The notes: generated by a model not told the origin, from the letters alone. Shown: positions 1 to 13,330, numbered from the stretch's first letter. The stretch: 41,540 nucleotides of DNA from an uncultured Candidatus Saccharibacteria bacterium (GCA_964363045.1 CAYIGM010000003.1:1-41540), one strand, 5' to 3'. Program-made: numbers and translations.

Positions 1-1
1 G

Positions 2-721
2 CTGAAGGAGATGGACCAGATCAAGTCCGACTTCGTGACTATTGCTTCTCATCAGCTTAGGACCCCGCTTACGGCTATCAAGGGTTATGCTTCGCTTATG
101 CTTGAGGGGAGTTACGGCAAAGTGCCGGAGAAGATGAAGGACCCTCTGAGTAAACTCTTCCGTTCTTCTGAGAGGATGGTGGTGATGGTGGGCGATTTCC
201 TAAATGTTTCTAGGATTGAGCGTGGCAAGATAGATTATGAATTCACAAAGTTTGATTTGAAGAAAATTGTTAAAGAACTTTTTGAGGAGTTTAAATTGAG
301 TATGGAGAAAGAGGGGAGAAGCGACCCCAAACTCTACTTTGACACAGAGGTTAAGGGGGAGGTGTTTGTAAATGGCGACGAGGGGAAGATCAAGCAGGTC
401 CTCTCCAACTTGATAGACAACTCTATAAAATACACGCCGTCCGGTTTTGTGAAGATAATTTTCTCTGTGTCGGAAGAAGGGGAAAAGACCGCTCTTGTCT
501 CTATCAAAGACAGTGGCGCCGGCATGAGTGAAGAGACGGTACATAAAATCTTTGAGAAGTTCAACAGGGCTAAAGACGCCTCTAGGTTCAACACCGAAGG
601 CTCCGGCCTCGGCCTCTACGTGGCCAAGGAATTCATCAAGAAGCACAACGGCCGCCTCTGGGCGGAAAGCCCCGGGGAGGGGAAGGGGTCTACTTTCTTT
701 GTAGAATTACCGTTGGGGTAG
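2..721 (+). CDS. sensor histidine kinase, C-terminal part (HisKA + HATPase_c); 5' end lies upstream of the window
   Basis: H-box SHQLRTPLTAIKGY, N-box-like LIDNSIKYT, G1 DSGAGM and G2 GSGLGL are present. The frame is open to the window edge (LKE precedes the Met at 11). Confidence 0.9.
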   Translation: MKEMDQIKSDFVTIASHQLRTPLTAIKGYASLMLEGSYGKVPEKMKDPLSKLFRSSERMVVMVGDFLNVSRIERGKIDYEFTKFDLKKIVKELFEEFKLSMEKEGRSDPKLYFDTEVKGEVFVNGDEGKIKQVLSNLIDNSIKYTPSGFVKIIFSVSEEGEKTALVSIKDSGAGMSEETVHKIFEKFNRAKDASRFNTEGSGLGLYVAKEFIKKHNGRLWAESPGEGKGSTFFVELPLG

Positions 722-847
722 TAGTATCTTTCTCGTCTCTCGCGAATTGATTGACTATCTAATGGTGGGTGGTAGTCTGAAAGTAGAGAAGTTTGGTCTT
801 TGAAAACTTAAACCATCCGCCTTGGCGGATAGAAGGGAGGTAGAGAG
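722..847 (+). promoter_or_regulatory. conserved leader copy A (promoter-like element + hairpin + SD) upstream of precursor peptide A
   Basis: TTGACT at 751-756, a 16-nt spacer, then TAGTCT at 773-778. Hairpin ATCCGCC/GGCGGAT at 815-830. SD GGGAGG at 835-840, 7 nt before the ATG at 848. Nearly identical to 9079-9204. Confidence 0.6.
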
Positions 848-991
848 ATGGAAACAAGCAAGATATTGGATGTCGTAGATAGGCATGTTGATGCACAAAA
901 TGCCCTAGGCAGTGATGGTCTTATCAGTGCTCATTCTGATGGCCCTGGGCACAACAACCACAGTGGAGACTCTGACCACGAAAACAGCTAG
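848..991 (+). CDS. 47-aa candidate RiPP precursor peptide A (METSKILDVVDRHVDAQNALGSDGLISAHSDGPGHNNHSGDSDHENS)
   Basis: Translated by hand and absent from the ORF track (below its length cut-off). Has a strong SD and sits directly upstream of a radical SAM/SPASM gene. The C-terminal half is rich in His/Asp/Ser/Gly/Asn and has no Cys. Confidence 0.65.
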   Translation: METSKILDVVDRHVDAQNALGSDGLISAHSDGPGHNNHSGDSDHENS

Positions 992-995
992 TCAA

Positions 996-1035
996 ATGAG
1001 AATGACTCTCCTGTAAAAAGGAGAGTCATTCTCAT
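996..1035 (+). promoter_or_regulatory. intercistronic 16-bp perfect stem-loop between precursor A and the rSAM gene
   Basis: ATGAGAATGACTCTCC (996-1011) pairs with GGAGAGTCATTCTCAT (1020-1035), with an 8-nt loop. The 3' arm contains the SD-like AGGAG and the ATG at 1034. Confidence 0.7.
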
Positions 1036-2125
1036 GATAGAAAAAGAGGATAAAATGCATATAATCCCGATTGTGAAAGTTGTATCAGAAACTTGTAATC
1101 TAAGATGTATCTATTGCTACTATCGCGACGGCAATCAAAATAAAATTCAGTTAATGTCATACAATGTGTTAACTGAGTTAATCAAAAAAACAATCCTCGA
1201 GATTAGAAACAGGATTACTTTTATCTGGCATGGCGGTGAGCCTTTACTTGCGGGCCGTTCGTTTTATCAGGACATTTTAGATATACAAAGTAAGTATAAA
1301 GAAGATAACCGCAAAGTGATAAACGGGGTTCAAACCAACGGCATTGTCCTCGACGGACGATGGGCTGAGTTCTTCTTTGAAAATCATTTTCGTGTTGGGG
1401 TAAGCTGCGATGGACCAAAGAAATACAACGATAAGAATCGTTTACTTGCTAACGGATTGAGTTCTTTTGATCGCGTATATAAAGGTATGCGCGATCTAAA
1501 AAGGTTCAATCTGGATCCTCATGTAATCTCAGTAATCACCCGCTCAAGTTTAGAAGGAGCACGCGAGATATACGAGTTTTTCAGGGATAATCAGTTATCA
1601 TTTCATCCTAAGCCATGCTCCGAGAGTGGCCGCAATGGCCTTCCAGCGGAATACTCCATTAATCCTGACGAATATACAGATTTCATGATAGAAATATTTG
1701 ATCTGTGGTGGAAAGATGATAATCCCCGGATCAAGATCAGAAATCTTTTTAATATTCTTATCGGATTGAGGGGAGGCAGGCCTAATTTGTGTGAGAGTAA
1801 TGGAGATTGCCACCTCTTTCTGACAGTTGAGCCTAATGGAGATGTTGGTCCTTGCGATAGTTTCTTAACCGGAAAATATCTTTTTGGCAATATAGAAAAA
1901 CAAAGCTGGAAAGAAATTTTAAATGGACCTGTGTATAAGAAATACCTTGAAGATATTGAGTACAGCAGAAGGTTTTGTAATGGATGCGAATGGCTCTCTG
2001 TCTGCAATGGTGGTTGCCTTAGATACTCGTTCGATGGAAATCAAGACAAATGGATTAAGAATCAGTTTTGTGAGTCAAAAATTCGTCTTTTTAAATACAT
2101 AAAAGAACGGATTTGCGCACGCTAA
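1034..2125 (+). CDS. radical SAM / SPASM-domain peptide-modifying enzyme (anSME-like family)
   Basis: CNLRCIYC CxxxCxxC cluster motif. C-terminal SPASM-type cysteines: CESNGDCHLFLTVEPNGDVGPCDSF ... CNGCEWLSVCNGGC. An alternative start is the ATG at 1055. Confidence 0.85.
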   Translation: MIEKEDKMHIIPIVKVVSETCNLRCIYCYYRDGNQNKIQLMSYNVLTELIKKTILEIRNRITFIWHGGEPLLAGRSFYQDILDIQSKYKEDNRKVINGVQTNGIVLDGRWAEFFFENHFRVGVSCDGPKKYNDKNRLLANGLSSFDRVYKGMRDLKRFNLDPHVISVITRSSLEGAREIYEFFRDNQLSFHPKPCSESGRNGLPAEYSINPDEYTDFMIEIFDLWWKDDNPRIKIRNLFNILIGLRGGRPNLCESNGDCHLFLTVEPNGDVGPCDSFLTGKYLFGNIEKQSWKEILNGPVYKKYLEDIEYSRRFCNGCEWLSVCNGGCLRYSFDGNQDKWIKNQFCESKIRLFKYIKERICAR

Positions 2126-2155
2126 AAGAGGTAGTTAAAAACTACCTCTTTTTTG
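2124..2155. terminator. bidirectional hairpin terminator between convergent genes
   Basis: AAAAGAGGTAGT / ACTACCTCTTTT stem with a 5-nt loop and flanking A/T runs. Confidence 0.7.
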
Positions 2156-3122
2156 TAGATTTCAATATTTTTGCAATCTTATCTATGAAATCTTTATCGA
2201 TCGGTTTTTTAATATTTATATAATTTTCAGTTAAAGAGATAATACTCTGTAGTACATTTTGACGAAAATCTGAAAAAGTATTAATTGGTGTCGGCTCCGT
2301 TTTTTTTAAAATGTTACCTAAATATTTAATGCCAATATATCCTTTTGGAACAAGGCTTTCTATTATGATCTCATTTATTGCAGTTAGCGGACTCATTTTT
2401 TCTTTAAAAAATTTTGTTTCTAAATTTATTTTGTTTTTGATGATAGTTTGCCTGATTAATTTAAGATGCCTCTCGTCTATGAAACAGAGGTGACATATCT
2501 CATGGAATATGACTCCCAGCGCATATTTTGTTAAAGAATGGTTCCGTGTTAAATTATTTATCTCTAAGGTTATTCCGCTTTCTCCTATATTTGCTCCGCC
2601 ACCAAGTTTGTCATTGCAAGGATGAGCTAAGAGGTAAATTGTCACTTTTTTTAAACTTACCTTGCTACCAAAAAAAGATTTAAGTTGGTTAAGTATAATT
2701 TTTGTTCTTTTATTAGTTAACTCATTTTCTATAATTTTTTTGTTAGTGGAGATTATTTTTGAGCCAATCTTCCACCAAATATTGAATTTTTTTTCAAAAA
2801 TATCAAAAGATTTCTCAATGATCTCGATATCTCTCTGCTTAAGAATAGCCCGCGCCTTAATAATAGCTTCTTTTTTATTTTTGCTCGTTATGAAGGACTC
2901 CCCAAGGTAAGTTAATACCCCTGGTTTTATTTGTTTGAATCCATATGCTGTCATTATTTTTTTTATTTGTTTCAGGTTGTTTTTTTCTTTATTAGTTAAG
3001 GCACCTAGAACCTTGAGCCACTCTTCGTTATAGTTTTTTCTGCAAGAGTAATGCCATTCTGAAAGATTTGTTACAAAGAAGAAAAAATTACCTATTCTTG
3101 AGGAAGTTACATTAAATTTCAT
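2142..3122 (-). CDS. hypothetical protein with HExxH (HEICH) motif, possible zinc metallopeptidase
   Basis: 326-aa ORF containing GVIFHEICHLCF. Convergent with the rSAM gene. No family recognised beyond the motif. Confidence 0.45.
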   Translation of the reverse strand: MKFNVTSSRIGNFFFFVTNLSEWHYSCRKNYNEEWLKVLGALTNKEKNNLKQIKKIMTAYGFKQIKPGVLTYLGESFITSKNKKEAIIKARAILKQRDIEIIEKSFDIFEKKFNIWWKIGSKIISTNKKIIENELTNKRTKIILNQLKSFFGSKVSLKKVTIYLLAHPCNDKLGGGANIGESGITLEINNLTRNHSLTKYALGVIFHEICHLCFIDERHLKLIRQTIIKNKINLETKFFKEKMSPLTAINEIIIESLVPKGYIGIKYLGNILKKTEPTPINTFSDFRQNVLQSIISLTENYINIKKPIDKDFIDKIAKILKSTKKR

Positions 3123-3171
3123 AATAGCTTTAGTATATAATATGTAGCTTAAGTATCAAAGGTGGTATTCC

Positions 3172-3334
3172 CTAGTTCAACACCGAAGGCTCCGGCCTCG
3201 ATCTCTATGTGGCCAAGGAATTCATCAAGAAGCACAACGGCCGCTTTTGGGCGGAGAGCCCCGGGGAGGGGAAGGGGTCTACTTTCTTTGTAGAGTTGCC
3301 GAGGGGGAAGGGCGTGTTGCCGTTAATTTATTGA
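3172..3334 (+). pseudogene. histidine-kinase 3'-end fragment, copy 2 (G2 box to stop)
   Basis: Encodes FNTEGSGLDLYVAKEFIKKHNGRFWAESPGEGKGSTFFVELPRGKGVLPLIY*. An in-frame TAG lies immediately upstream (3173-3175) and there is no start codon. Near-identical DNA to 583-721. Confidence 0.85.
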
Positions 3335-3377
3335 TTATGAAATAAGTATATTTAGTTTAGTATTAGCAACAATCATT

Positions 3378-4142
3378 ATGAATATTATCGTCTACTCAAA
3401 AGAAGAGGGCTTTGAGGGTGGTGTTAAAAAACTTGGCGATGAATCTTCTCAATGTGGAAAAACTTGCGAGATTATCGAGATAAAAGAATTACCTGGCTTG
3501 TTAAAAAGGGGATATTTTGAGACTATACAATTTAACATATATTTTCTCTCTAGCGATTATCGCATATCACATTTTATAGATATTATTAAAAAGAAAAACC
3601 AAACTGTGGTAAATGAGGCATTTTTAATTCGCGGCATAATTGTATCAAAATTTGAGTCATTGGAAAGAGTGCGTCGCGGTGGTATACACATACCAAGGCA
3701 TATACAACTAACATACGATGATAATAATTTTTTAGATAAATTAATTATGCCGGTTTTTATAAAGTCCAAGAGTCCGAGAGGGTTAGTTATTCGCGTTAAT
3801 GATAAAAAGTCACTAAATAATAGACTTGAATCATTGCCCGAAAAACAGAATTATTATCTTGAAGAAAATGTAAAGAATAAAGATAATATTGAATTAAAAA
3901 TTTATTATATTAATGGTGATGCATACGCACAAGAAATATGTGGTGCCAATACCGATATTCCAAGTTGGTTTCGTGTCGTATTGGATAAGATATCAAAATG
4001 TACAGAGCTAGATGTGTTTTCCGCAGATTTTTTTATTGATTGGGGAAAAGAGGAGTACTATTGTTTTGATATTAATCACGCATCATCTTTTTATAAATCT
4101 GAGAAAGCAAGAGAAGTATTTATTTCTAAAATTTTAAAATAA
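3378..4142 (+). CDS. ATP-grasp-like protein (putative)
   Basis: 254-aa ORF whose layout resembles RimK-type ATP-grasp proteins (PVFIKSKSPRGLVIRV, YYLEENV, ELKIYYINGD, YCFDINHASSF). The assignment comes from motif resemblance only. Confidence 0.45.
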   Translation: MNIIVYSKEEGFEGGVKKLGDESSQCGKTCEIIEIKELPGLLKRGYFETIQFNIYFLSSDYRISHFIDIIKKKNQTVVNEAFLIRGIIVSKFESLERVRRGGIHIPRHIQLTYDDNNFLDKLIMPVFIKSKSPRGLVIRVNDKKSLNNRLESLPEKQNYYLEENVKNKDNIELKIYYINGDAYAQEICGANTDIPSWFRVVLDKISKCTELDVFSADFFIDWGKEEYYCFDINHASSFYKSEKAREVFISKILK

Positions 4143-4143
4143 T

Positions 4144-4836
4144 ATGGATTGGGAAGAGATGTATATGAGTAAAATTAGACGCGCTGGTGGAATAGATCGA
4201 TATCTTCAAAAAAAAGAAGAAAGATCGGCGGGCGCACTCATTGAGCGTATAAGAAAAAATATTAAACCAGGGTCTCGTATTTTAGAGATTGGAACCGGAA
4301 CAGGCGCAATTGGGGCACTGCTCACCAAATACGGCTTTGATATGACGGCAATTGATAACGATTCAAAAATGATAAAAATAGCTAAAAAAACTTTTTCATT
4401 ATTTAATAAGGTTGATAATGTTTATTTATATAATGCTAAAGATATTATTAAAAAATTTGGATTAAATTCGTTTGCTTGCGTAATATCTCATGGGATGCTG
4501 GAACATTATTCAGATATAGAGATAATTAACTTTTTGAAGATACAGCTTTCTGTAGCTCCTCTTGTGATATTTGTTATACCAACATCCTCTATGTCAAAAA
4601 AATATAGATCTAAAGGGATTGGAGATGAAAGATATTTATCAACACAATACTGGAGAGAATTGATCAGAAAAGATTTTTTTATTCAGTATATTTTTGGATT
4701 TGGATTTAAAGAAACAAATTTCCCGCAGTCTTTTGAAATACTATTAAAAAATAATACCATAGCGAGGTTACTTGCTCCATTATGCGGTATTAATGAATTT
4801 TGGATTATCGCTAAAGGGGATAATTTTACTTTTTGA
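4144..4836 (+). CDS. class I SAM-dependent methyltransferase
   Basis: Motif I ILEIGTGTGAIG followed by an acidic residue in AIDND. Tightly follows the preceding gene (2-nt gap). Confidence 0.75.
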   Translation: MDWEEMYMSKIRRAGGIDRYLQKKEERSAGALIERIRKNIKPGSRILEIGTGTGAIGALLTKYGFDMTAIDNDSKMIKIAKKTFSLFNKVDNVYLYNAKDIIKKFGLNSFACVISHGMLEHYSDIEIINFLKIQLSVAPLVIFVIPTSSMSKKYRSKGIGDERYLSTQYWRELIRKDFFIQYIFGFGFKETNFPQSFEILLKNNTIARLLAPLCGINEFWIIAKGDNFTF

Positions 4837-5239
4837 TGAGATGATAAATTTCCTTAAAATATTCTTTTAAGTTGTTATAACTTAATATCGAAGATACCTC
4901 ATTTATTGGTATCCATTTAATATTATCTTCTTTAAATTCCGGCCTTAAAAGGGTATCATCCTCAGATTGTACCAAAAACATTTTTGTCGAGATATTGCCT
5001 CCATTTGGATGTGTATAATTTATACCCGGCAATTCTCGTAGAATTATTATAGATAGCCCGGTCTCTTCTTTGATCTCTCTCCTCATTGTGGCGGTCGGAT
5101 TTTCACCCTCCTCAATGTGCCCCTTGGGAAAAGACCAATCATTTTGTTTTCCACGATAAAGCAGAGCAATTTTATTTTGATCATCTTTGCTCAAAATAAT
5201 GGCGCCGGCTTTTTGTGTTGATTTAGTTTTGATAATCAT
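4826..5239 (-). CDS. NUDIX hydrolase
   Basis: Nudix box GHIEEGENPTATMRREIKEETGL (GX5EX7REUXEEXGU). Confidence 0.85.
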   Translation of the reverse strand: MIIKTKSTQKAGAIILSKDDQNKIALLYRGKQNDWSFPKGHIEEGENPTATMRREIKEETGLSIIILRELPGINYTHPNGGNISTKMFLVQSEDDTLLRPEFKEDNIKWIPINEVSSILSYNNLKEYFKEIYHLIKK

Positions 5240-5289
5240 TACTATATAATAACTTATTTTAATATGTTTATAAATAAGTATTTTTATTC

Positions 5290-5327
5290 AAAAAAATCCC
5301 CCTTATTCTTGATAAAATAAGGGGGGT
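5290..5327 (-). terminator. rho-independent terminator after the P-loop gene
   Basis: CCCCCTTATT / AATAAGGGGG stem, followed on the minus strand by a T-run. Confidence 0.65.
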
Positions 5328-5352
5328 TAAGAAGTAAATTTAGATTAACGAT

Positions 5353-5889
5353 TCATTTGATTTTTCCGGTCACGGAAAGATACTCAAAAAGAGCTTTTGC
5401 TTCTAAAGCTTGTAATTCCTGTGATGCTATCCCGCAAAAAGACCACTCTATTTGAGAGAGAAGGCAGTGATAATCTTCTTTATCATGCCAATGTCGCGCT
5501 CTTCTATCATCAAGAGTTAGATCTTCGGGGCTACTCCTCTTTAGTCTTAGTTCTTTTGGAATAAATACGCCCGCCAAGGTGCTTTCGCTATCTACTTCTT
5601 TAATGGCTCGCCATTCATCGGGGGTATGAATAGCATCAAGAAGAATGACATTATTTGGGTTTCTGTCGTATTCAATTCTCCTTAGCAGGTGATGCATGAT
5701 TTCATACCCTCCCATCGTTCGATAGAGATTACGATACCAATCAGTCCATGCGGGTTCGTTTTCCCCAATGTCAGACCATTCTTTTAGTAGGGCTCGCTTC
5801 AAGAGCCATTTCCATCCAAATCTTTTTTCCATATATTGGCAGAGATGTGATTTTCCCGAACTATGAAAACCAGCAAATCCTATAATCAT
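5353..5889 (-). CDS. P-loop NTPase / small-molecule or nucleotide kinase-like protein
   Basis: Walker A GFHSSGKS at the N-terminus. 178 aa, similar in size to dephospho-CoA or nucleoside-monophosphate kinases. Confidence 0.5.
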   Translation of the reverse strand: MIIGFAGFHSSGKSHLCQYMEKRFGWKWLLKRALLKEWSDIGENEPAWTDWYRNLYRTMGGYEIMHHLLRRIEYDRNPNNVILLDAIHTPDEWRAIKEVDSESTLAGVFIPKELRLKRSSPEDLTLDDRRARHWHDKEDYHCLLSQIEWSFCGIASQELQALEAKALFEYLSVTGKIK

Positions 5890-5916
5890 TTTTTTCTCCT
5901 CATCTTACGGGTGAGA

Positions 5917-7011
5917 TTATTTTTTTTCTGCCATCGCGGCGGACATACAGTGTATTTCGGGGGTGCAGGAATTTCCCCAGAAGGAAGAAAGATTCTGTAT
6001 CATAAAATCCCCGACGCTGGACACTCCTAACGGCTCTAAAAAACCACAAGTATGAACACGGCCATTCGGAGATATGGAAAGTCCTCGCCGTCCAGCTTTA
6101 CACTTGTGCCATGCGAACGGGAGTTTGATTCTTGGGGCGGTATCAATTTCCTTGAGATAATGACCACTGACAATTCCCTTTGGGTCAGAAAGAAATGAAT
6201 CTAGTTTGATGCGCAGAACATTATAGTCATCAGTTGTCAGCATTTCTTGCGCATTACTTGCTCTTCCTGACGGGATTAACCTCCGGATCATTATTGGTAC
6301 ATTTCGGTCAGAGAAATATCGCACCACATGAGGGATTTCCAACAAATTGCTCTTCATGGCAACGAGGTTCACTCTTACAGGAATTTGAGCTTCTATTAAA
6401 AACTCAATACCCTTAAGAGTTTTTTGAAACATTCCAAGCCCTCGAATAGAATCGTGCCTATCTTCGAGGCCATCGACGCTGACAATCGCAACATTTAGAC
6501 CAATTTCGGAAAGACGCTTTGCGACTGTAGCATCGATAAGTGTTCCGTTTGTACCCAGTGATGCGCGTAAACCAGCTTCTCGGATCTTTAAAATGTAATC
6601 AAAGATTGAAGATATAAGAAGAGGCTCTCCTCCGGTGAAGCGAACTTCTTGAACTCCAGACATACAAAAATCCTCAAGGAGAGAGATTTTTCGCTCATGA
6701 GATAACTCGACAGGTAATGATTCACTAGAGTCATTAAGGCAATGAGTGCAGTGTAGATTGCATGCACGAGAGAGCTCAAAAAAGATTATATCTGGCGCGC
6801 TGAAATTATCAGCAGGGAGAGTGCTTGGTTCACGGATGATTACCTCGGTTGACGTCGTCTTCAATTCAATCCGAAGATTATAAGGAACAAGACCCTCGTT
6901 CTTTATCTGTTGGAATTCTAGTGGAGTAATGTATATCCTCTTTCCGGAGACTGCATTGCTGATTGTCCCGCCAAAAAATTCTTTTCTGAGTAATGATGCT
7001 TGTCTTTTCAT
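5917..7011 (-). CDS. radical SAM enzyme with partial SPASM/twitch C-terminal domain and an N-terminal extension
   Basis: CNLHCTHC cluster motif, GGEPLL, and C-terminal CKAGRRGLSISPNGRVHTC plus CTPEIHC. I moved the start to the ATG at 7011, which is preceded by AGGAGG; the ORF track uses the TTG at 7053. Confidence 0.8.
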   Translation of the reverse strand: MKRQASLLRKEFFGGTISNAVSGKRIYITPLEFQQIKNEGLVPYNLRIELKTTSTEVIIREPSTLPADNFSAPDIIFFELSRACNLHCTHCLNDSSESLPVELSHERKISLLEDFCMSGVQEVRFTGGEPLLISSIFDYILKIREAGLRASLGTNGTLIDATVAKRLSEIGLNVAIVSVDGLEDRHDSIRGLGMFQKTLKGIEFLIEAQIPVRVNLVAMKSNLLEIPHVVRYFSDRNVPIMIRRLIPSGRASNAQEMLTTDDYNVLRIKLDSFLSDPKGIVSGHYLKEIDTAPRIKLPFAWHKCKAGRRGLSISPNGRVHTCGFLEPLGVSSVGDFMIQNLSSFWGNSCTPEIHCMSAAMAEKK

Positions 7012-7046
7012 CTTTGTCCTCCTTAAGATAAGTTTATTTTTTTTAA

Positions 7047-7076
7047 TTGACAAAGTACATTTCTAATATATAGAAT
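7047..7076 (+). promoter_or_regulatory. sigma70-like promoter, TTGACA-18 nt-TAGAAT
   Basis: TTGACA at 7047-7052 and TAGAAT at 7071-7076, 9 nt upstream of the ATG at 7086. Confidence 0.55.
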
Positions 7077-7085
7077 GCATATATT

Positions 7086-7181
7086 ATGATTGAAAGTCAA
7101 CATCAAAAATTACAACAAGCGTTTGAGGCACAAAAAAATTGTTTGAATCTTTGTTATCGTAGTAGCTGGACGGCTTCGTGA
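7086..7181 (+). CDS. 31-aa Cys-containing small ORF (MIESQHQKLQQAFEAQKNCLNLCYRSSWTAS)
   Basis: Translated by hand. Lies directly downstream of a strong promoter and divergent from the rSAM gene. Its stop TGA overlaps the GTG at 7178 of the kinase fragment. Confidence 0.3.
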   Translation: MIESQHQKLQQAFEAQKNCLNLCYRSSWTAS

Positions 7182-7447
7182 AAATTATCTTTTCCCTGCC
7201 GGAGGGGAAGAACACCGCCCTTGTGTATATTAAAGATTCCGGCGCCGGCATGAGTGAAGAGACGGTACATAAAATCTTTGAGAAGTTCAACAGGGCTAAA
7301 GACGCCTCTAGGTTCAACACCGAAGGCTCCGGCCTCGGCCTCTATGTGGCCAAGGAATTCATCAAGAAGCACAACGGCCGCTTTTGGGCGGAGAGCCCCG
7401 GGGAGGGGAAGGGCTCAACCTTCTTCGTGGAATTGCCGCTTAGTTAG
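7167..7447 (+). pseudogene. histidine-kinase 3'-end fragment, copy 3 (G1 box to stop); retains an 89-aa ORF from the GTG at 7178
   Basis: Homologous to 448-721: VKIIFS..KDSGAGMSEETVHKIFEKFNRAKDASRFNTEGSGLGLYVAKEFIKKHNGRFWAESPGEGKGSTFFVELPLS*. TAGTAG stops lie just upstream in frame. HisKA and the N-box are missing. Confidence 0.8.
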
Positions 7448-7462
7448 AGAGGGTAAAATATT

Positions 7463-7606
7463 ATGAGAAATAAATTTGAAGAAGAAGGCTTAAAAGTAGA
7501 GAAAAAAGGACAGTTAGATTTTTTAAAAAATGTCCTTAATAGATATGATAAACTTTATTTTGATGGTGCAGCAGATGGTATTAAATATCTAAAGAACATA
7601 AAATGA
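7463..7606 (+). CDS. 47-aa small ORF (MRNKFEEEGLKVEKKGQLDFLKNVLNRYDKLYFDGAADGIKYLKNIK)
   Basis: Translated by hand. Starts 15 nt after kinase fragment 3 and overlaps the next start as ATGA (7603-7606). Confidence 0.35.
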   Translation: MRNKFEEEGLKVEKKGQLDFLKNVLNRYDKLYFDGAADGIKYLKNIK

Positions 7607-8170
7607 AAAATATTGAATTAAAAGTAGAAGTTGATAATTTTGATGATATTATCGGCGTGCTGAAAAAAAGGCGCTAAATATAATGGCGAATTGTTTCAAA
7701 TAGACACCTATTATCATTGTGACCAAGGAAGACTGAAGTTAAGGGAGATAAATCATTCTGTCTTTGAGCTAATTTTTTATAAGAGGCCAAATAAATTTAG
7801 ATCCAAGATCTCTGAATATCAAATCATAGATATGCCAAAAATAAGTCTCGGAAGGATAAAATTAGAGTTGTCATCTATATATGGTGAAAAGAATATTGTT
7901 CGAAAGAAAAGAAATTTATGGATATATAAGAATACAAGAATACATCTTGATGATGTCTATGGCCTTGGAGGATTCTTAGAAATTGAGACAGTGGTGAAAA
8001 ATATTGATATCAAGCAAGCTAGAAAGGAGCACAGTGAAATTATATCCCTGTTGAATCTCTTGGAATATAAAAAAATAGATAAGTCTTATGGGGATTTGAT
8101 CCCCGTCATTCCTGTTAGGAAAGATATTTCGGTAGATAATACAATGATGAAGTGTCCATTGTTTTCCTAA
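7603..8170 (+). pseudogene. CYTH-domain protein (CyaB/class IV adenylate cyclase-like), interrupted by a frameshift in an A7 run
   Basis: MKNIELKVEVDNFDDIIGVLKK reads into a stop at 7675-7677. Removing one A from 7663-7669 restores ...LKKGAKYNGELFQIDTYYHCDQGRLKLRE..., which continues as ORF 7691-8170. Confidence 0.65.
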
Positions 8171-8201
8171 AAACAAACAATATCTATAAGTAAAAGGTAC
8201 G

Positions 8202-8246
8202 CTCTTCGTGGAGCTACCGAGGGGGTAGTAGATTTGACGGTAGTTT
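8202..8246 (+). repeat. 30-nt stub of the kinase 3' end plus a decayed leader remnant
   Basis: CTCTTCGTGGAGCTACCGAGGGGGTAGTAG matches ..FVELPRG* and the GTAGTAG start of the leader. It is followed by ATTGACGGTAGT, which matches the leader's TTGAC and GGTAGT blocks. Confidence 0.6.
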
Positions 8247-8249
8247 TTA

Positions 8250-8258
8250 TGGTATAAT
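8250..8258 (+). promoter_or_regulatory. extended -10 box TGgTATAAT, 6 nt upstream of the mntA GTG
   Basis: TG at 8250-8251 and TATAAT at 8253-8258. There is no SD before the start at 8265. Confidence 0.5.
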
Positions 8259-8264
8259 ACACCT

Positions 8265-8555
8265 GTGGAAAAGGATATTATTATTGAAAAATTAAATAAA
8301 ACCCTGCCGATTTTAAAGGAAAAATACAATGTGAAAAGCATGGGTGTCTTCGGCTCGTATATAAGAAATGAGGCAAAGGCAGGGAGTGATCTGGATATTT
8401 TAGTCACATTTGAAAAACCGATAGGATTGTTAAAATTTATAGAGCTGGAAAATTATCTTTCGGATATAACAGGAATAAAAGTTGATTTGGTATCTAAAAG
8501 GGCGCTTAAGCCCAGAATCGGAAAACAGATATTAGCGGAAGTTGTTAATATATAA
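8265..8555 (+). CDS. mntA: MntA-type nucleotidyltransferase antitoxin
   Basis: GVFGSYIRNEAKAGSDLDILV (GSxxR..SDxD polymerase-beta NTase motif), 96 aa, directly abutting a DUF86 gene. Confidence 0.85.
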   Translation: MEKDIIIEKLNKTLPILKEKYNVKSMGVFGSYIRNEAKAGSDLDILVTFEKPIGLLKFIELENYLSDITGIKVDLVSKRALKPRIGKQILAEVVNI

Positions 8556-8912
8556 GTGATGAAAAGAGATTATCTGGATTATCTTCAAGATATTATTGAC
8601 TCAATAAATGACATTGAGAGCTTTGTTAGTGGAATGAATTTTAATTCGTTTGAAAAAGATAAAAAGACTTTAAATGCAGTGGTAAGGAGTTTGGAAATAA
8701 TAGGTGAAGCTGTTAAAAAAATACCGGATGAGGTAAAAAATAAATACACTAACATTCCATGGAAAAATATGTCGGGAATGAGGGATAAATTGATCCACGA
8801 ATATTTTGGAATTGATGAAGATATCGTTTGGAGGGTTGCAGTAGAGGAATTGCCACCACTAAAGCCGTTTTTTGAAAAAATTTTAACAGAAACGGAAGGA
8901 GAAAATCTTTAA
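8556..8912 (+). CDS. hepT: HepT (DUF86/HEPN) toxin
   Basis: HEPN RX4H motif in RDKLIHEYFGID, 118 aa. The real start is probably the ATG at 8559. Confidence 0.85.
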   Translation: MMKRDYLDYLQDIIDSINDIESFVSGMNFNSFEKDKKTLNAVVRSLEIIGEAVKKIPDEVKNKYTNIPWKNMSGMRDKLIHEYFGIDEDIVWRVAVEELPPLKPFFEKILTETEGENL

Positions 8913-9081
8913 GAAATTCAATAGGGCTAAAGACGCCTCCAAGTTCAACACCGAAGGCTCCGGTCTCGGCCTCTATGTGGCCAAAGAGTTCATCACTAAA
9001 CACAATGGCCGCCTCTGGGCGGAGTCAGCTGGCGAAGGAAAGGGGAGCACCTTCTTCGTGGAGTTGCCGAGTGGGAAGTAG
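8902..9081 (+). pseudogene. histidine-kinase 3'-end fragment, copy 4 (more diverged)
   Basis: Encodes (E)KIFKKFNRAKDASKFNTEGSGLGLYVAKEFITKHNGRLWAESAGEGKGSTFFVELPSGK*. There is no start codon. The homology begins inside the last codons of hepT, in another frame. Confidence 0.85.
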
Positions 9082-9204
9082 TATCTTTCTTGTCTCTCGC
9101 GAATTGATTGACGATCTAATGGGGGGTGGTAGTCTGAAAGTAGAGAAGTTTGGTCTTTGAAAACTTAAACCATCCGCCTTGGCGGATAGAAGGGAGGTAG
9201 AGAG
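9082..9204 (+). promoter_or_regulatory. conserved leader copy D upstream of precursor peptide D
   Basis: Aligned from the TAG (9079-9204 versus 722-847) I count 3 mismatches in 126 nt, and the last 78 nt are identical. TTGACG at 9108-9113, TAGTCT at 9130-9135, hairpin at 9172-9187, GGGAGG at 9192-9197. Confidence 0.6.
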
Positions 9205-9348
9205 ATGAAGAAAACGAATCTAATGCCATTGATTCTTGATTTGGCGGAAAAAGTCGATGTCGTCTACGACAAGAGTGGTAGACAGGTTTGTTTCGCTGGT
9301 ACAACTCAGGGAACTTATGACGAACCTGACTCCGCTGGTCCCGACTAA
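9205..9348 (+). CDS. 47-aa candidate graspetide precursor D (MKKTNLMPLILDLAEKVDVVYDKSGRQVCFAGTTQGTYDEPDSAGPD)
   Basis: Translated by hand. Has a strong SD and sits immediately upstream of an MvdD/MdnC-like ATP-grasp gene. The C-terminus is rich in Thr/Ser plus Asp/Glu and contains TTQGTYDE. Confidence 0.7.
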   Translation: MKKTNLMPLILDLAEKVDVVYDKSGRQVCFAGTTQGTYDEPDSAGPD

Positions 9349-9353
9349 GCACA

Positions 9354-9397
9354 TTAGTTAGGATGGGCGAGGACACTTCCTCTCCCATCCTAACTAA
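9354..9397 (+). promoter_or_regulatory. intercistronic long stem-loop between precursor D and the ATP-grasp gene
   Basis: TTAGTTAGGATGGG (9354-9367) pairs with CCCATCCTAACTAA (9384-9397), with further inner pairing (one mismatch). There is no T-run. Confidence 0.65.
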
Positions 9398-9427
9398 CAC
9401 TTAACTAATAAAAAGGAGGTGATGGAC

Positions 9428-10357
9428 ATGATTTTAATAATCGGAAATAGTTCAGACAAGGCCAAGACCGTTGTAGATGAAATCAAGAAAATAAGCAAAA
9501 AGAAAGTCATCATCTTTAAAGCCGACAAATGCATAGAGGGAGAAGCTATAGGATTTTCCCTTATTAATGACAAGGCGATGTTATTTGCCGATATAAGTGG
9601 AAAAGATTTTGATTTAAATGAAGCAACATCCGTATGGTACTGGAAGCCGTTGTTGCCCAAGGTCTTGAGAACTATAGAGCCAGCAAGACATCAAATATTC
9701 ATCCATAGGCAGTTTTTAACAATATGGCGTTCAATTGCCAGTTGCCTATCTGACAGGATGTGGATCAATGACTACTACAAACTGTTAGAAGCCGAGAATA
9801 AGCCATACCAAATAAAGCTGGCTTCAGAAATCGGATTTGATATTCCAGATACTCTTATCACTTCTGATCCGAAAAGAGCAATAGATTTTTGGGAATATTG
9901 TGATAAGAAAATGATAATTAAAACTTTAGCTCTCAGTCAGACTGAAGATAGTATGATCTACACTAACAAAGTCACAGAGGAGATAATGCTAAAAATAGAA
10001 AGGCTGAGGTCGTCGCCAGTTATTATGCAGAAGCTAGTCCCCACAAAATACGGACTAAGGATAACTGTAGTGGGTGATGATATTTTCCCCGCTAGAGTTG
10101 AGAGTGACAGTGAAATCGATTGGCGTAGAAGTGAGATTAAACTCAAAAAATATCATCTACCTGGAGAAATTAAAGATAAATGTTTCTGCATGGTAAGGAA
10201 GTTAGGACTAAAGTATGGTTGTATAGATATGATACTCACACCTGATGGTAAATATGTTTTTCTGGAAATAAATCCAAATGGACAGTGGAGTTTTGTCGCA
10301 GAAAGGACGGGTATGCCGATTGGAGAGGCCATCGCACATTTGCTAGTTCACGAGTGA
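9428..10357 (+). CDS. MvdD/MdnC-family ATP-grasp ligase (graspetide / omega-ester peptide synthetase-like)
   Basis: SVWYWKP, ENKPYQIKLA, VIMQKLV, RITVVGDDIF, DWRR and CIDMILTPDGKYVFLEINPNGQW. The start is placed at the ATG 8 nt after AAGGAGG; the ORF track starts at the GTG at 9419. Confidence 0.8.
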   Translation: MILIIGNSSDKAKTVVDEIKKISKKKVIIFKADKCIEGEAIGFSLINDKAMLFADISGKDFDLNEATSVWYWKPLLPKVLRTIEPARHQIFIHRQFLTIWRSIASCLSDRMWINDYYKLLEAENKPYQIKLASEIGFDIPDTLITSDPKRAIDFWEYCDKKMIIKTLALSQTEDSMIYTNKVTEEIMLKIERLRSSPVIMQKLVPTKYGLRITVVGDDIFPARVESDSEIDWRRSEIKLKKYHLPGEIKDKCFCMVRKLGLKYGCIDMILTPDGKYVFLEINPNGQWSFVAERTGMPIGEAIAHLLVHE

Positions 10358-10360
10358 AAA

Positions 10361-10389
10361 GGGAGAAACATTTCGTTTCTCCCTTTTTT
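10361..10389 (+). terminator. rho-independent terminator
   Basis: GGGAGAAAC / GTTTCTCCC stem with a 5-nt loop, followed by TTTTTT. Confidence 0.8.
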
Positions 10390-10434
10390 GATTATTAAGA
10401 TCAAAATGCTAAAATAATACTATGAAATAATACT

Positions 10435-10971
10435 ATGATTAGAAACAAGAAATTACAACAGAAAGTCTTAAAAATGGCATCAATGGATCAAAAAGCAAGA
10501 AAACAGTTCGTAAACGATAGCCAGAATAAGAAATTAGCTAAGCGTATTTATAATTGTGATACTAAAAATATTATAAAAGCAAAAGAAATTATTAAGAAAT
10601 ATGGTTGGCCAACTTTTGATTTAGTCGGGAAAAGAGCTTCCGATGCTTTTTGGCTATTAGTCCAGCACTCTGATAGGGATATAAAGTTTCAAAAGAGGTG
10701 TTTGGCTCTTTTGAGAGAAGTGGTAGAAAATAAGCAGGCTCACTCCAAAAATTTGGCTTTCCTTACTGACAGGATTTTATCAGCTGAAAGTAAAAAGCAA
10801 AAATTTGGTACACAATTTATCTTTAAGAACGGAAGGGCTGTTGTAAAGCCGGTTCAGGACAGAAAGAATCTCAATAAAAGAAGAATCAAATATGGGTTAA
10901 ATACAATAGAGGAAAGAACAAAAGAGATAAATAAAGAGTACTCTAAGATGTTATCGTTGATGAAGAAATAA
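10435..10971 (+). CDS. hypothetical protein (resembles the DUF6624-type helical family)
   Basis: 178-aa ORF with GWPTFDLVGKRASDAFWLLVQHSD and LTDRIL motifs. The family assignment is from memory and is weak. Confidence 0.35.
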   Translation: MIRNKKLQQKVLKMASMDQKARKQFVNDSQNKKLAKRIYNCDTKNIIKAKEIIKKYGWPTFDLVGKRASDAFWLLVQHSDRDIKFQKRCLALLREVVENKQAHSKNLAFLTDRILSAESKKQKFGTQFIFKNGRAVVKPVQDRKNLNKRRIKYGLNTIEERTKEINKEYSKMLSLMKK

Positions 10972-10982
10972 ATAATATTTTG

Positions 10983-11028
10983 CTTAAACACTCAAATCCG
11001 CCGCGGCGGATAGAAAGGAGGTAGAGAG
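10983..11028 (+). promoter_or_regulatory. partial leader copy E (hairpin + SD only)
   Basis: CTTAAAC..ATCCGCCGCGGCGGATAGAAAGGAGGTAGAGAG matches the 3' third of leaders A and D. The stem is kept and the loop differs. Confidence 0.6.
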
Positions 11029-11055
11029 ATGGAAACAAGATGGTTTACTTGCTAG
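11029..11055 (+). pseudogene. 8-aa ORF METRWFTC*, probably the truncated remnant of a precursor-A-like gene
   Basis: The first 11 nt (ATGGAAACAAG) are identical to precursor A, after which the sequence diverges and stops. Confidence 0.45.
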
Positions 11056-11090
11056 TTTACTTATGTTTTTGAGCAGATTAAACTAGATAT

Positions 11091-12116
11091 ATGAATGAAT
11101 CGAGGGTAAAAATCAAATTATCTTATATAACAGGTCTAAGGGATGTTGTCTTAGGTGAGATAAATCAGTATTCAAAGCTTCATACACTCAAAGAAATTAA
11201 TGATTCTGTCTATTTGGATTATGTAGAAGACCTCAATGAGATTAAGAGATTAAGAAGTGTGTCTCGAGCTTACATTGTGTTGCAGGATTTTAAATACAAT
11301 CCACTTTATATTTCCAATCACAAATCAATCGTAGGTAATTTAATAGACATGGTCATCAATGAAGACAAAAATGCGTTTAAAACTTTTAAGATAACATGCG
11401 CCGGATCAAGCTCTCAGGAAGTTCGTAGTATTGCTGAATACATACAGATAACATATGGAGTGATGGAAAAAGAAGAAGCGGACATGAAAATACATATTAT
11501 AAAATCAGATGACGTGTGGGAAATAGGTATTCAGATCACTCATCGGCCACTTTCTGTACGAGGCTACAAAGTTAAAAATATGAGCGGGGCGATGGACCCG
11601 ACTATTGCATATGCTGTAAATTCATTTTGCGCGTTAGAGATGGCAAAAACCTATCTGAATGTTTTTTCCGGTAGCGCTACATTGCTTATTGAGGCAAGTC
11701 AATCTTATCCAGACTTAAAGGATTTAGGTGGTTTTGATAATGATAAAAAACATATTTCTTTAGCGGTGCAAAATATTAAGAAGGCCGGATTGATTAAAAA
11801 GATCAAACTAAAAGAGGCGGATATTTTTGATAAGCCAGATTTTGGGAAGTTTGATGCGGTAACATCTGATTTGCCGTTTGGTATGTCTATATCAAATGAC
11901 GAAGATTTGGAGGAGTTGTATAAAAGTTTTGTAGAATATTGCCAAGATGTATTAAGCCCGGATGGAAGGCTGGTTATTTATACGAATGAGAGCGAACTTC
12001 TGGAAAAGACTATTCAAGAATCGGAGTTTAAGATAGTAAAAACTCTAGAATTAAAATTCATAACATCGGTGGGCGCATATCTTCGCCCAAAGATTTTTGT
12101 GTGTAGGTTAAAATAA
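11091..12116 (+). CDS. THUMP-like domain + class I SAM-dependent methyltransferase (UPF0020 / RlmL-Trm14-like)
   Basis: AMDPTIAYAVNSF, FSGSATLLIE and the catalytic-loop-like SDLPFG, with an N-terminal ~150-aa ferredoxin/THUMP-like region. Confidence 0.55.
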   Translation: MNESRVKIKLSYITGLRDVVLGEINQYSKLHTLKEINDSVYLDYVEDLNEIKRLRSVSRAYIVLQDFKYNPLYISNHKSIVGNLIDMVINEDKNAFKTFKITCAGSSSQEVRSIAEYIQITYGVMEKEEADMKIHIIKSDDVWEIGIQITHRPLSVRGYKVKNMSGAMDPTIAYAVNSFCALEMAKTYLNVFSGSATLLIEASQSYPDLKDLGGFDNDKKHISLAVQNIKKAGLIKKIKLKEADIFDKPDFGKFDAVTSDLPFGMSISNDEDLEELYKSFVEYCQDVLSPDGRLVIYTNESELLEKTIQESEFKIVKTLELKFITSVGAYLRPKIFVCRLK

Positions 12117-12179
12117 GAGCGATGGTTGAATGACAAGAGGCAATATCTTTTATAAAATATATAAAAAGCTTTAATTCAT

Positions 12180-12302
12180 ATGGGTAAGTTCGTTAAAATA
12201 GGCTTCGGAGGATCTTATCGCTTCTCTATGAAAAATTGGAATAAATTAAAAAAAAGGTGGGCATCTATCGGCAAAAAATTTTATGAAAAAGAGCTTTTAT
12301 AA
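12180..12302 (+). CDS. 40-aa basic small ORF (MGKFVKIGFGGSYRFSMKNWNKLKKRWASIGKKFYEKELL)
   Basis: Translated by hand in a 230-nt intergenic gap. No homology recognised. Confidence 0.15.
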   Translation: MGKFVKIGFGGSYRFSMKNWNKLKKRWASIGKKFYEKELL

Positions 12303-12349
12303 AAAGATAATGGAATTTATTAAGAAAAATGATAGAATATTGATAATAT

Positions 12350-12814: not shown

Positions 12815-12847
12815 TTATATATATAGATATTTAAAATAATATAAATA

Positions 12848-13294: not shown

Positions 13295-13330
13295 TTTGAC
13301 ACTATCCTCGGTGTGTATTAGTATAAAAAT

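Follow-up and report, generated by a model that had tools for sequence, protein, structure and literature searches.

Organization of the locus

In the window (the whole analysed stretch of 41,540 nt), the 3' part of an intact histidine kinase (HK) gene is followed by gene cassettes separated by truncated copies of the HK 3' end or of the leader behind it. The resident HK has been assigned through its HisKA (1.4e-16) and HATPase_c (6.5e-27) domains in Pfam. Its stop codon lies at 719–721 and its 5' end is cut off by the window start; contig L001 carries the gene on upstream, to at least 510 aa. The cargo assignments have been checked with Pfam and NCBIfam, and the features are given below in their order from the HK end.

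1–721, + strand: intact histidine kinase (HK) gene, 3' part; HisKA and HATPase_c (Pfam)
722–850, +: leader copy 1, intergenic (repeat families D1 and D4; pattern hits)
848–3122, mixed strands: cassette 1, HK-proximal, radical SAM (rSAM) peptide set (ORFs, Pfam/NCBIfam)
848–991: cassette 1, 47-aa precursor
996–1035: cassette 1, 40-nt hairpin
1034–2125, +: cassette 1, radical SAM/SPASM maturase
2142–3122, −: cassette 1, 326-aa protein with a HEICH motif
3172–3319, +: fragment c2, corresponding to HK about 582–727, 90–92% identical
3378–7053, mixed strands: cassette 2, methyltransferase/rSAM/Nudix set (Pfam/NCBIfam), including a SAM methyltransferase (+), a Nudix protein (−) and a radical SAM protein (−)
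3378–4142, +: cassette 2, 254-aa protein with a weak RimK-family match
5353–5889, −: cassette 2, 178-aa protein with a Walker-A-like motif and no family match
7171–7447, +: fragment c3, corresponding to HK about 442–721, 87–88% identical
7463–8170, +: cassette 3, 47-aa ORF, then CYTH gene
8198–8231, +: fragment c4, 34-nt stub of the HK end including TAGTAG (nhmmer, pattern search)
8232–8912, +: cassette 4, promoter-like site, MntA and HepT (Pfam; site read by eye)
8265–8555, +: cassette 4, MntA nucleotidyltransferase (NTP_transf_2, Pfam 6.8e-17)
8556–8912, +: cassette 4, HepT (HepT-like, Pfam 3.1e-32)
8902–9207, +: fragment c5 (HK 545–721), then leader copy 2 (9079–9207)
9205–10971, +: cassette 5, candidate graspetide set: 47-aa precursor, MvdC/MvdD-like ATP-grasp maturase, DUF6624 protein
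10996–11039, +: leader remnant 3, equal to window 815–858 at 93% (repeat families, blastn, pattern hits)
11091–13294, +: cassette 6, HK-distal, UPF0020 methyltransferase, Nudix and nucleotidyltransferase-like protein (Pfam)
13391–13552, +: right border, conserved intergenic stretch with a terminator-like hairpin (blastn; sequences read)
13558–14157: GNAT gene, just 3' of the right border

Leader copy 1 contains the hairpin TCCGCC-TT-GGCGGA, a ribosome binding site (RBS) and the ATG of the first precursor, and its RNA fold has a z-score of −2.07. In cassette 3, the end of the 47-aa ORF at 7463 overlaps the CYTH start at 7603, and the CYTH gene is frameshifted near 7670. The adjacent NTP_transf_2 and HepT-like genes of cassette 4 are predicted to form an MntA-HepT type VII toxin-antitoxin pair; a promoter-like site (TTGACG...TGGTATAAT) precedes the MntA gene, and the HepT stop codon falls within fragment c5. 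The maturase of cassette 5 matches TIGR04185 with 195.9 bits (E = 8.7e-58), under the curated cut-off of 425, and a 47-aa ORF lies upstream, making this a candidate graspetide-type (ATP-grasp RiPP) set. The cargo named in the original prediction stands overall, with two corrections in cassette 2: the protein called ATP-grasp-like has just the weak RimK match, and the one called P-loop matches no family. The three 47-aa ORFs exist as predicted, but their translations have no evident similarity, and one overlaps the CYTH start. Their equal length looks like coincidence.

Truncated copies of the kinase 3' end

The copies have been located by blastn of window positions 1–1040 against the whole window, and all matches lie on the + strand. 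Together with a profile search, this bears out the prediction of truncated, same-strand HK 3' copies downstream of the intact end; the predicted left breakpoints (583, 448, 690 and 540) are close to the measured ones, about 582–586 for c2, 442 for c3, 691–696 for c4 and 545 for c5. By blastn, c2 covers 3175–3310 (HK 586–721, 92%) and c3 covers 7171–7438 (HK 442–712, 88%). The claim that every copy reaches the kinase stop codon is right insofar as the 3' end is always kept; the stop of c2 has been mutated from TAG to AAG, so that its ORF extends to 3334, and the last 9 nt of c3 have diverged, with an in-register TAG retained. Fragment c3 is a mosaic in which a 104-nt run matches the resident HK exactly, and an RBS and ATG stand 15 nt past its end.

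For c4, blastn alone gives a weak match (8203–8231, HK 696–724, 79%, E=0.44), whereas a profile of seven other HK ends, built without the stub, finds 8198–8230 at E=4.6e-6, its next chance match reaching only E=1.2. A 21-nt consensus of the HK end has five matches against 0.05 expected, and the last ~20 nt are common to every HK copy. By these sequence measures, the 34-nt stub is real.

Fragment c5 does not stop at 9081, as had been proposed. It runs unbroken through the whole leader to the precursor ATG at 9205–9207, as the intact HK does, and by blastn 8902–9207 corresponds to HK 545–850 at 88%. Its HK part has 81% identity with the resident HK and 86% with the allele of the related locus G2, while leader copy 2 (about 130 nt) is 97.7% identical to leader copy 1. 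A leader-only remnant at 10996–11039 is added to the copies listed originally; it holds the hairpin, the RBS and ATGGAAACAAG, and opens merely an 8-codon ORF. The HK-end repeats are the sole repeat family in the window. As predicted, the copies are richer in GC (0.52–0.59) than the cargo (0.36 over 722–13390; 0.39 for the whole window).

Extent of the variable region and related loci

In a relative, L006, the homolog of window 13391–13552 lies about 90 nt past the HK stop codon (blastn 86%, E = 3e-51). Because the HK of L006 nearly abuts this stretch, the variable insert is delimited to about 722–13390 (about 12.7 kb), and the right limit of 11055 first given for the array has to be moved accordingly. 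The same architecture with other cargo has been found in four further Patescibacteria lineages. Nine fragments are thus known from five lineages, all on the same strand, 3' of one full-length HK and with the 3' end kept. Their lengths are 34, about 140, 177 and 277 nt in the window, 237 and 744 nt in G2, about 205 nt in L009, about 190 nt in L011 and about 225 nt in L014. The 744-nt fragment b of G2 retains a complete HisKA and HATPase_c core, and across its join with cargo B it shares a 157-nt identical stretch with the full HK's own join to that cargo. In L009, the HK fragment is interrupted by a hairpin insertion and an AmcB-like maturase at a cassette edge is truncated at its 5' end.

The empty site of L006 and the four lineages with different cargo show that cargo was added stepwise 3' of a conserved HK, in agreement with the repeated insertion at the kinase 3' end that the original prediction had put forward.

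Allelic origin of the fragments and recombination within the HK gene

Most of the substitutions that separate the fragments from the resident HK are synonymous (dN/dS 0.05–0.17 at dS 0.1–1.0), with dN/dS values of 0.17 for c2, 0.08 for c3 and 0.09 for c5, the last at a dS of about 1.0. The orthologous pair of window HK and G2 HK gives 0.08. The divergence therefore arose within functional genes, and the fragments are the 3' ends of other, once-functional HK alleles rather than decaying local duplicates; plain local duplication does not account for such ratios at a dS of up to about 1.0. In line with this, c5 and part of c3 bear the G2-type residues AESAGEGKG and SLPEGKN. All 55 differences between L001 and the window are confined to positions 175–382, and the HK fragments are mosaic (P<5e-5 and P=1e-4). 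This clustering and mosaicism show active recombination in the HK gene. For the displacement proposed below, a leader 97.7% identical beside synonymous-saturated HK copies is a difficulty that calls for an extra assumption, either gene conversion or strong constraint.

Proposed mechanism of array growth

The array probably grew by sequential displacement of the HK 3' end. DNA of a related strain would enter with its own HK 3' end and downstream genes and pair with the resident HK by homology, while its far end would join illegitimately within or just past the 3' end of the resident HK, by homology-facilitated illegitimate recombination; or else a circle of HK fragment and cargo might integrate via a single crossover. 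The HK would remain intact, but with its 3' end replaced and another cassette next to it, and the former 3' end, cut at a random left point, would shift downstream with its former cargo. Five or six repetitions of this cycle would yield the array of the window, presumably with the newest cassette nearest the HK. Natural transformation would be the route of entry: com DNA-uptake genes are conserved throughout the CPR phyla, and transformation with homologous recombination has been demonstrated in Saccharibacteria (PMC10633639; PMC12455944). On the whole, the locus is rather likely to be a recombination hotspot behind a conserved sensor HK of a groundwater Patescibacteria lineage.

That every fragment runs on into its right-hand cargo, as in c5 and G2 fragment b, speaks for displacement, as does the cutting of cargo at cassette edges, seen in the L009 maturase and in HepT with its stop codon in c5. 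The allelic mosaicism points to the HK as the homologous anchor that homology-facilitated illegitimate recombination needs on one side, opposite a microhomology join. Joins just past or just short of the stop codon would leave residues such as the leader-only remnant, whose left break is at 815, and the 34-nt stub. The data are equally compatible with anchoring on the right, the homology then lying in the downstream flank and the illegitimate join on the left. Against displacement, no donor genome with an internal window cassette right after a full-length HK was found, and the sole cassette homolog traced, a 76% identical copy of cassette 2 in L026–L035, has non-HK surroundings. Homology-facilitated illegitimate recombination is moreover rare where measured (PMC5361080); set against five or six events and five lineages, this rarity may call for something more specific.

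Site-specific recombination and integron features

A rival reading is site-specific accretion, in which a tyrosine or serine recombinase from another part of the genome would insert elements, or integrase-less cis-mobilizable remnants, into the HK 3' end, each bringing a surrogate 3' end. Accretion of this type is known for ICESt1/ICESt3 and CIMEs at fda, for phage 21 and e14 at icd, and for tRNA-linked additive islands. As in those cases, the target gene at the HK locus is intact, its 3' end presumably being supplied by the incoming DNA, and direct copies of that end, sharing the last ~20 nt, flank the tandem inserts. Five lineages show the pattern at this one gene, and a surrogate 3' end would likewise be under purifying selection, matching the observed dN/dS. 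Site-specific accretion is nevertheless unlikely. The scanned window ORFs (those of at least 90 aa and the three 47-aa ORFs) yielded no integrase, transposase or tRNA gene, nor did the related-locus genes scanned or carrying precomputed Pfam families (including the arrays of G2, L009, L011 and L014), and a Pfam scan of the 5.4 kb upstream of the HK in L006 revealed no recombinase. A fixed crossover core predicts a constant boundary, whereas the fragments begin anywhere between 34 and 744 nt ahead of the stop codon, which speaks against a single-site integrase. In addition, c5 and G2 fragment b are joined without a break to the right-hand and not the left-hand cargo, the cassettes are small (0.7–3.9 kb), and an inverted-repeat search over 1–13000 found no recurrent inverted-repeat family at the cassette edges.

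With integrons and CALINs the locus shares an ordered series of promiscuous cassettes, including a toxin-antitoxin pair, beside a fixed point. An integron is defined by intI beside the array, which a CALIN does not need, and attC sites by imperfect inverted repeats of about 60–140 nt at the 3' end of every cassette. Neither intI nor attC was found in the sequences searched, where the original prediction had likewise seen no integrase, attC-like element or transposase. Parts of a protein-coding gene serve as separators, and the cassettes comprise several genes each, in both orientations and with their own promoter-like sites; the comparison with an integron-like array is thus not supported.

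Decay of paralogs, cassette switching and reliability of the assembly

Decay of a tandem series, in which full-length units of HK plus cargo (paralogs or acquired) lost their 5' parts by deletion except in the first kinase, is hardly likely either. Functional paralogs would also give a low dN/dS, and G2 fragment b, with its complete domain core, could be an intermediate. However, two full-length copies occur in no genome examined, and full-length HK paralogs at internal positions, which the original prediction had linked to such decay, were seen in none of the related genomes examined. The 3' end is present in each of the nine fragments, with no remnant from the 5' part or the interior of the gene; random deletions would not leave such a pattern, and each would also have to stop precisely at the cargo before it. 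Join points account for the 34-nt stub and the leader-only remnant better than deletions do.

The repeats might instead be kept for switching, RecA-mediated excision, re-integration or deletion re-pairing the HK with another cassette by read-through transcription, with circles exchanged between cells. Repeats of 140–300 nt at 88–92% identity are usable for homologous recombination, conversion-like mosaic tracts occur between copies, and the leader is well preserved. Contig L005 closes on itself through 141-nt identical ends (fragment c – cargo A – fragment b – cargo B), and contigs L007 and L008 of the same population indicate that cargo B follows the full HK as well as fragment b. Yet this loop may be an assembly path switch or a strain mixture, since the 188-nt run identical between fragment b and HK exceeds k. 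No alternative junctions were found in the Hainich contigs retrieved (three replicate assemblies and the Logan assemblies), and distal cargo is decaying, as seen in the CYTH frameshift and the hairpin insertion in L009. Active switching is consequently considered improbable.

A chimera of collapsed or mis-joined reads from strains with the HK and different cargo is a very remote explanation: a second strain is present (L001) and short-read contigs break within the repeats (L003 ends at 9178; L015, L016 and L018 begin at about 9153), but L003, assembled independently, matches window 2196–9178 at 99.99% identity across c2, c3, c4 and their flanks, the layout is found again in further samples, under different assemblers and in an NCBI MAG, and collapsed full-length kinases would not yield unique left junctions with non-HK sequence. 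Contigs L001 and L002 span the HK, the leader and the rSAM precursor. The junctions are therefore repeated by independent contigs, and the artefact that the original prediction had allowed for is not borne out, except at the link of c5, leader and candidate graspetide set, which no independent contig crosses and which follows by elimination alone.

Comparison with displacement arrays

Sequential displacement would bring to an ordinary regulatory gene, with no recombinase nearby, a pattern that has been described for Rhs and type VI toxin loci. Rhs loci contain partial cores of varying length as direct repeats, with a GC-rich core and AT-rich downstream sequence, and form "C-terminal displacement" arrays, to which orphan cdiA-CT/cdiI modules are a related case (Jackson et al. 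2009, PMC2935791). The HK locus has the same layout, one intact gene followed on its strand by partial 3' copies that differ in length and in the module behind them, and the same GC contrast between repeated core and downstream DNA. Further features of a displacement array are the once-functional alleles shown by dN/dS, the empty site of L006 and the position of G2 cargo B after both HK and fragment b. In both systems the fragments are silent and slowly decaying, and homologous recombination, possibly via circles, is proposed to let incoming DNA displace the incumbent 3' end. Unlike in Rhs, the anchor is a sensor histidine kinase rather than a polymorphic toxin, and the variable part consists of complete operons (two RiPP sets, one of them a candidate, a toxin-antitoxin pair, CYTH, methyltransferase/Nudix sets) instead of an in-frame toxin tip and immunity gene. 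Rhs fragments are nearly identical to their intact gene, whereas those of the HK locus differ from the resident copy by 8–19%, and the host belongs to a Patescibacteria lineage. The locus thus works like the displacement arrays, yet it has been rejected as a polymorphic-toxin locus, because the HK C-terminus is conserved in all copies and the cargo consists of separate genes.

In Vibrio cholerae, T6SS effector-immunity modules are displaced sequentially by homology-facilitated illegitimate recombination, and the study itself draws a parallel to integrons (Kirchberger et al. 2017, PMC5361080). As proposed for the HK locus, the homology is provided there by a conserved gene on the upstream side, the other end is joined illegitimately, and older modules are shifted downstream into an array with no integrase involved. 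The persistence of the Vibrio array is explained by selection for old immunity genes, a rationale not evident here. In contrast to Vibrio, the displaced pieces of the HK locus retain clear remnants of the 3' end of the anchor gene.

Truncated copies of the kinase 3′ end

The histidine kinase (HK) gene is open at the start of the window, and its part at 11-721 encodes the HisKA and HATPase_c domains (Pfam); the matching contig L001 indicates a protein of at least 510 residues. A blastn search of the whole window with its nucleotides 1-1040 as the query revealed further copies of the HK end, all on the same strand, which form the sole repeat family within 41.5 kb:

3175-3310, + strand: copy c2, corresponding to HK 586-721, 92% (blastn)
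7171-7438, + strand: copy c3, corresponding to HK 442-712, 88% (blastn)
8203-8231, + strand: stub c4, corresponding to HK 696-724, 79% (blastn)
8902-9207, + strand: copy c5 with the leader, corresponding to HK 545-850, 88% (blastn)
10996-11039, + strand: leader-only remnant of 44 nt, corresponding to 815-858, 93%

The original prediction placed the copies and their left breakpoints correctly to within a few bases, and all the copies that it listed are real. Its statement that each runs to the kinase stop codon has to be amended: the stop codon is lost in c2, c5 extends past the kinase end across the whole 130-nt intergenic leader up to the next ATG, and the leader-only remnant had not been listed. 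The copies are also, as predicted, GC-richer (0.52-0.59) than the region between them (0.36). By blastn on its own the 30-nt stub c4 is not significant; a profile compiled from seven further kinase ends, the stub omitted, recovers it at E = 4.6e-6, the next match having E = 1.2. A 21-nt motif common to all copies had its sole match among species-representative contigs, a set from which the source genome is absent, in an unrelated Alcanivorax. The antisense ORFs that lie in GC-rich fragments (200-646, 7154-7372 and 8749-9003) were taken to be by-products of composition.

Assembly support

Replicate assemblies from one groundwater well (record names Hain_H52_01um) provide independent contigs. 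L002 equals window 326-2974 at 99.3%, L003 equals 2196-9178 at 99.99% and crosses c2, c3, the stub c4 and both flanks, while L015 and L016 match from about 9153 onward. The link between c5, leader and graspetide set lies at contig ends in every replicate assembly, and it follows by elimination only, given that L001 and L002 run from the HK through the leader into the rSAM precursor. Since these contigs tile the region independently, an array made by chimeric assembly is unlikely.

Extent and surroundings of the variable insert

The HK of the related locus L006 is about 79% identical, and about 90 nt past its stop codon lies an 86% homolog of window 13391-13552, the intergenic stretch directly before a GNAT gene. 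The L006 kinase thus nearly adjoins the far flank, and the variable insert of the window therefore spans about 722-13390 (12.7 kb). The array had been predicted at 2-11055, where it indeed lies; the insert continues past that end point to hold a sixth cassette with a methyltransferase, Nudix and NTase. Beyond 14.3 kb the window carries housekeeping genes, including TrpRS/TyrRS-type and other aminoacyl-tRNA synthetases, ScpA/B, MurG and FtsW. The top kinase matches belong to Patescibacteria MAGs. Scanning the window (for proteins, its ORFs of 90 aa or more plus the three 47-aa ORFs) revealed neither an integrase or transposase nor a tRNA gene, in agreement with the first reading as regards integrase and transposase, and the window ORFs without a family match are not recombinase-like.

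Directly upstream of the L006 kinase (3994-5449), a SAM methyltransferase and a FeeM/autoinducer-synthase-like acyltransferase are encoded, which hints at a signalling context; a response regulator adjoining the kinase was found in none of the loci examined. A palindromic terminator-like element (AAACGGCTCAACC...GGTTGAGCCGTTT) is located at window 33855-33897 and at L006 1533-1575 and 3855-3892. It is 93% conserved between the two, although the L006 kinase gene is only about 79% identical, and it is found repeatedly in L006, a 193-nt stretch of which recurs at 87.6%. Window 40001-41000, inside the adenylosuccinate lyase gene (40150-41481, - strand), has a GC content of 0.54 compared with 0.39 for the whole window.

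Recurrence in other lineages

Arrays of the same type are present at related loci.

Gene order at related kinase loci
G2 lineage (L005, L007, L008; HK 82% identical): full HK, cargo B (including a class I aminoacyl-tRNA synthetase), 237-nt fragment, cargo A (ATP-grasp, PIG-L, Nudix and others), 744-nt fragment
L009 (Ca. Taylorbacteria MAG; kinase 41% amino acid identity over full length): HK, three genes, ~205-nt fragment (87%), antitoxin/PemK, further genes, TrpRS
L011/L012: HK, four genes, ~190-nt fragment (84%)
L014: HK end, 42-aa ORF and radical SAM, ~225-nt fragment (89%)
L025 (control homolog): PyrG directly after the kinase, no fragment

The synteny from HK to TrpRS in L009 is the same as in the window. 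Its fragment is interrupted by a 38-nt perfect palindrome at 10028-10065 (AACCTATTGTCTAATTCG TG CGAATTAGACAATAGGTT), which lies in an insert of about 50 nt and may be a small mobile hairpin element. In P0129 (L022) a fragment stands at the contig start, and this context was therefore set aside. In P0003 (L024/L025), used as a control HK homolog, CTP synthase follows the kinase with no fragment; the array is therefore absent from some related kinases.

Allelic origin of the fragments

Fragments compared with their resident kinases have a dN/dS of 0.05-0.17, at dS of 0.1-1.0, and a true ortholog pair has 0.08. Under local duplication and neutral decay (one copy neutral) about 28-41 non-synonymous changes are expected, whereas 5 (c3) and 12 (c5) are seen, and this origin was rejected. 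Copy c5 is 86% identical to the G2 allele compared with 81% to the resident kinase, and the G2-type stretch “SLPEGKN” is present in c3. The low dN/dS and these G2-type affinities show that the fragments are 3′ ends of different, once-functional kinase alleles. The paralog explanation, by which tandem full-length kinases decayed in place, is likewise disfavoured: two full copies occur in no genome examined, related genomes thus having no full-length paralogous kinase at the internal positions, and no 5′ or internal kinase remnant was found.

Both larger fragments are mosaics: c3 matches the resident gene without a mismatch over a run of 104 nt (P<5e-5), and in c5, 34 differences fall in 545-719 against 3 in the leader (P=1e-4). 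The co-occurring strains represented by L001 and the window differ at 55 positions, all in HK 175-382 (L001 989-1196; about 26% divergence), with zero differences across the other 1957 nt compared. Taken together, the mosaics and this confined divergence indicate that recombination between diverged alleles is frequent in the HK gene. The 208-nt stretch 175-382 looks like an imported allelic tract; it spans the linker and the latter half of the HisKA domain, a region where partner specificity could be affected. The displaced fragments are dated relics of earlier kinase alleles and could serve to reconstruct the order and sources of acquisition.

Proposed displacement mechanism

The HK locus is best read as an array built by displacement, in which a sensor kinase of CPR bacteria is the anchor and whole operons are the cargo. 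In the proposed sequence of events, incoming DNA carrying a kinase and new cargo would pair with the resident kinase, its other end would be joined illegitimately, at random, within the resident 3′ end or shortly past it, and the old 3′ end with the old cargo would shift downstream; the recombination route, event order and mode of DNA entry are what we infer here. Such sequential displacement predicts what is observed: (i) the 3′ end is kept in 9/9 fragments; (ii) the left ends are spread over 34 to 744 nt; (iii) every fragment is continuous with its right-hand cargo. In G2, fragment b and the full kinase join cargo B through the same sequence, identical across 157 nt, and in the window c5 passes into the leader, while c3 is followed by 15 nt and then by RBS and ATG. 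The 34-nt stub and the leader-only remnant would result from joins landing just before and just after the stop codon, respectively. Cut cargo at cassette edges also fits: the HepT stop codon falls inside c5, and a 188-aa ORF of L009 (8867-9433, - strand) is only the C-terminal half of an AmcB-type cyclophane-forming radical SAM maturase (model positions 211-360 of 362), a 5′-truncated cargo gene. The 3′-anchored same-strand fragments, the near-empty site of L006 and the recurrence in other lineages support the earlier idea of accretion at a gene 3′ end. Another Hainich population has a copy of cassette 2, 76% identical, with no kinase fragment within 490 nt upstream; cassettes therefore exist outside the HK locus too.

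The same architecture is on record for polymorphic toxin loci. At Rhs loci the direct repeats are partial cores that differ in length, the core is GC-rich and the DNA downstream AT-rich, and circular intermediates have been proposed (PMC2935791). The V. cholerae T6SS effector-immunity arrays are ascribed to homology-facilitated illegitimate recombination (PMC5361080). In contrast to these loci, the anchor here is a sensor kinase in CPR bacteria and the cargo consists of whole operons, so the displacement process known from toxin loci is not confined to them. The CPR phyla share conserved DNA-uptake genes, and Saccharibacteria have been shown to undergo transformation with homologous recombination (PMC10633639, PMC12455944). 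The Patescibacteria (CPR) have tiny genomes with few classical mobile elements recognised, and surveys infer much horizontal transfer among them (PMC12455944). The HK locus offers a concrete sequence-level footprint: accessory operons, among them a toxin-antitoxin pair and two distinct sets for peptide natural products, stacked beside a conserved gene with no recombinase in sight.

A broader reading takes the kinase 3′ end as a landing pad, dedicated and lineage-wide in Patescibacteria, that would do the work of an integron without an integrase. Modules of HK end and cargo, circular or linear, would circulate in the population, be captured by homologous recombination and be re-excisable between direct repeats, and the HK-proximal cassette would be expressed through the conserved leader. 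We regard this as rather unlikely. Locus L005, which would be one such circle, has identical ends (1-141 and 10472-10612, exactly k = 141) and reads as a closed 10,471-bp loop of fragment c, cargo A, fragment b and cargo B; a circle, a tandem duplication and a path switch during assembly could each explain the loop. An active switching system would account for this closure and for the full kinase and fragment b both appearing to run into cargo B. However, a 188-nt identical run shared by fragment b and the full kinase exceeds the assembler's k, so a path switch is possible, and alternative junctions are not seen in the Hainich contigs; we regard switching as improbable. Should excision or switching also take place through the repeats, the locus would amount to a simple cassette-exchange system of natural origin. 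Construction by a single-site integrase is disfavoured by the varying left boundaries and by the lack of an integrase among the scanned genes of the five arrays, that of the window included. The integron-like array first suggested is not supported.

Leader and cargo details

The two full leader copies are 97.7% identical despite synonymous saturation in the coding copies next to them, which would reflect either recent conversion or strong constraint. The leader (722-850, 9079-9207, 10996-11039) has a hairpin TCCGCC-NN-GGCGGA followed by GGAGG, and in the predicted fold a 5′ pyrimidine tract, CUUUCUCGUCUCUC, pairs with the RBS (z = -2.07). It stands before two unrelated peptide precursors and may be a translational control element. 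Across related loci it was found in the Hainich lineage only; an Rfam scan of 1-14300 gave nothing near any gathering score, the leader included, and a sigma-70 promoter scan gave 55 matches against 47.8 expected, too close to chance to be informative. A 40-nt hairpin (GAGAATGACTCTCCT...AGGAGAGTCATTCTC) at 996-1035, between the 47-aa precursor and the radical SAM gene, has a weak Rfam match below threshold and could be an attenuator setting the precursor:enzyme ratio.

The three ORFs of exactly 47 aa, whose equal length had been pointed out, show no similarity on inspection; homology among them was rejected, and no significance is attached to the length. No exact-protein record was found for the ATP-grasp protein (9419-10357). 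The CYTH gene (7603-8170) is frameshifted near 7670, with the N-terminal “IELKVEV” in one frame and the rest in another. A sequencing error is unlikely because the independent contig L003 is 99.99% identical across 2196-9178, and the CYTH cassette is probably decaying.
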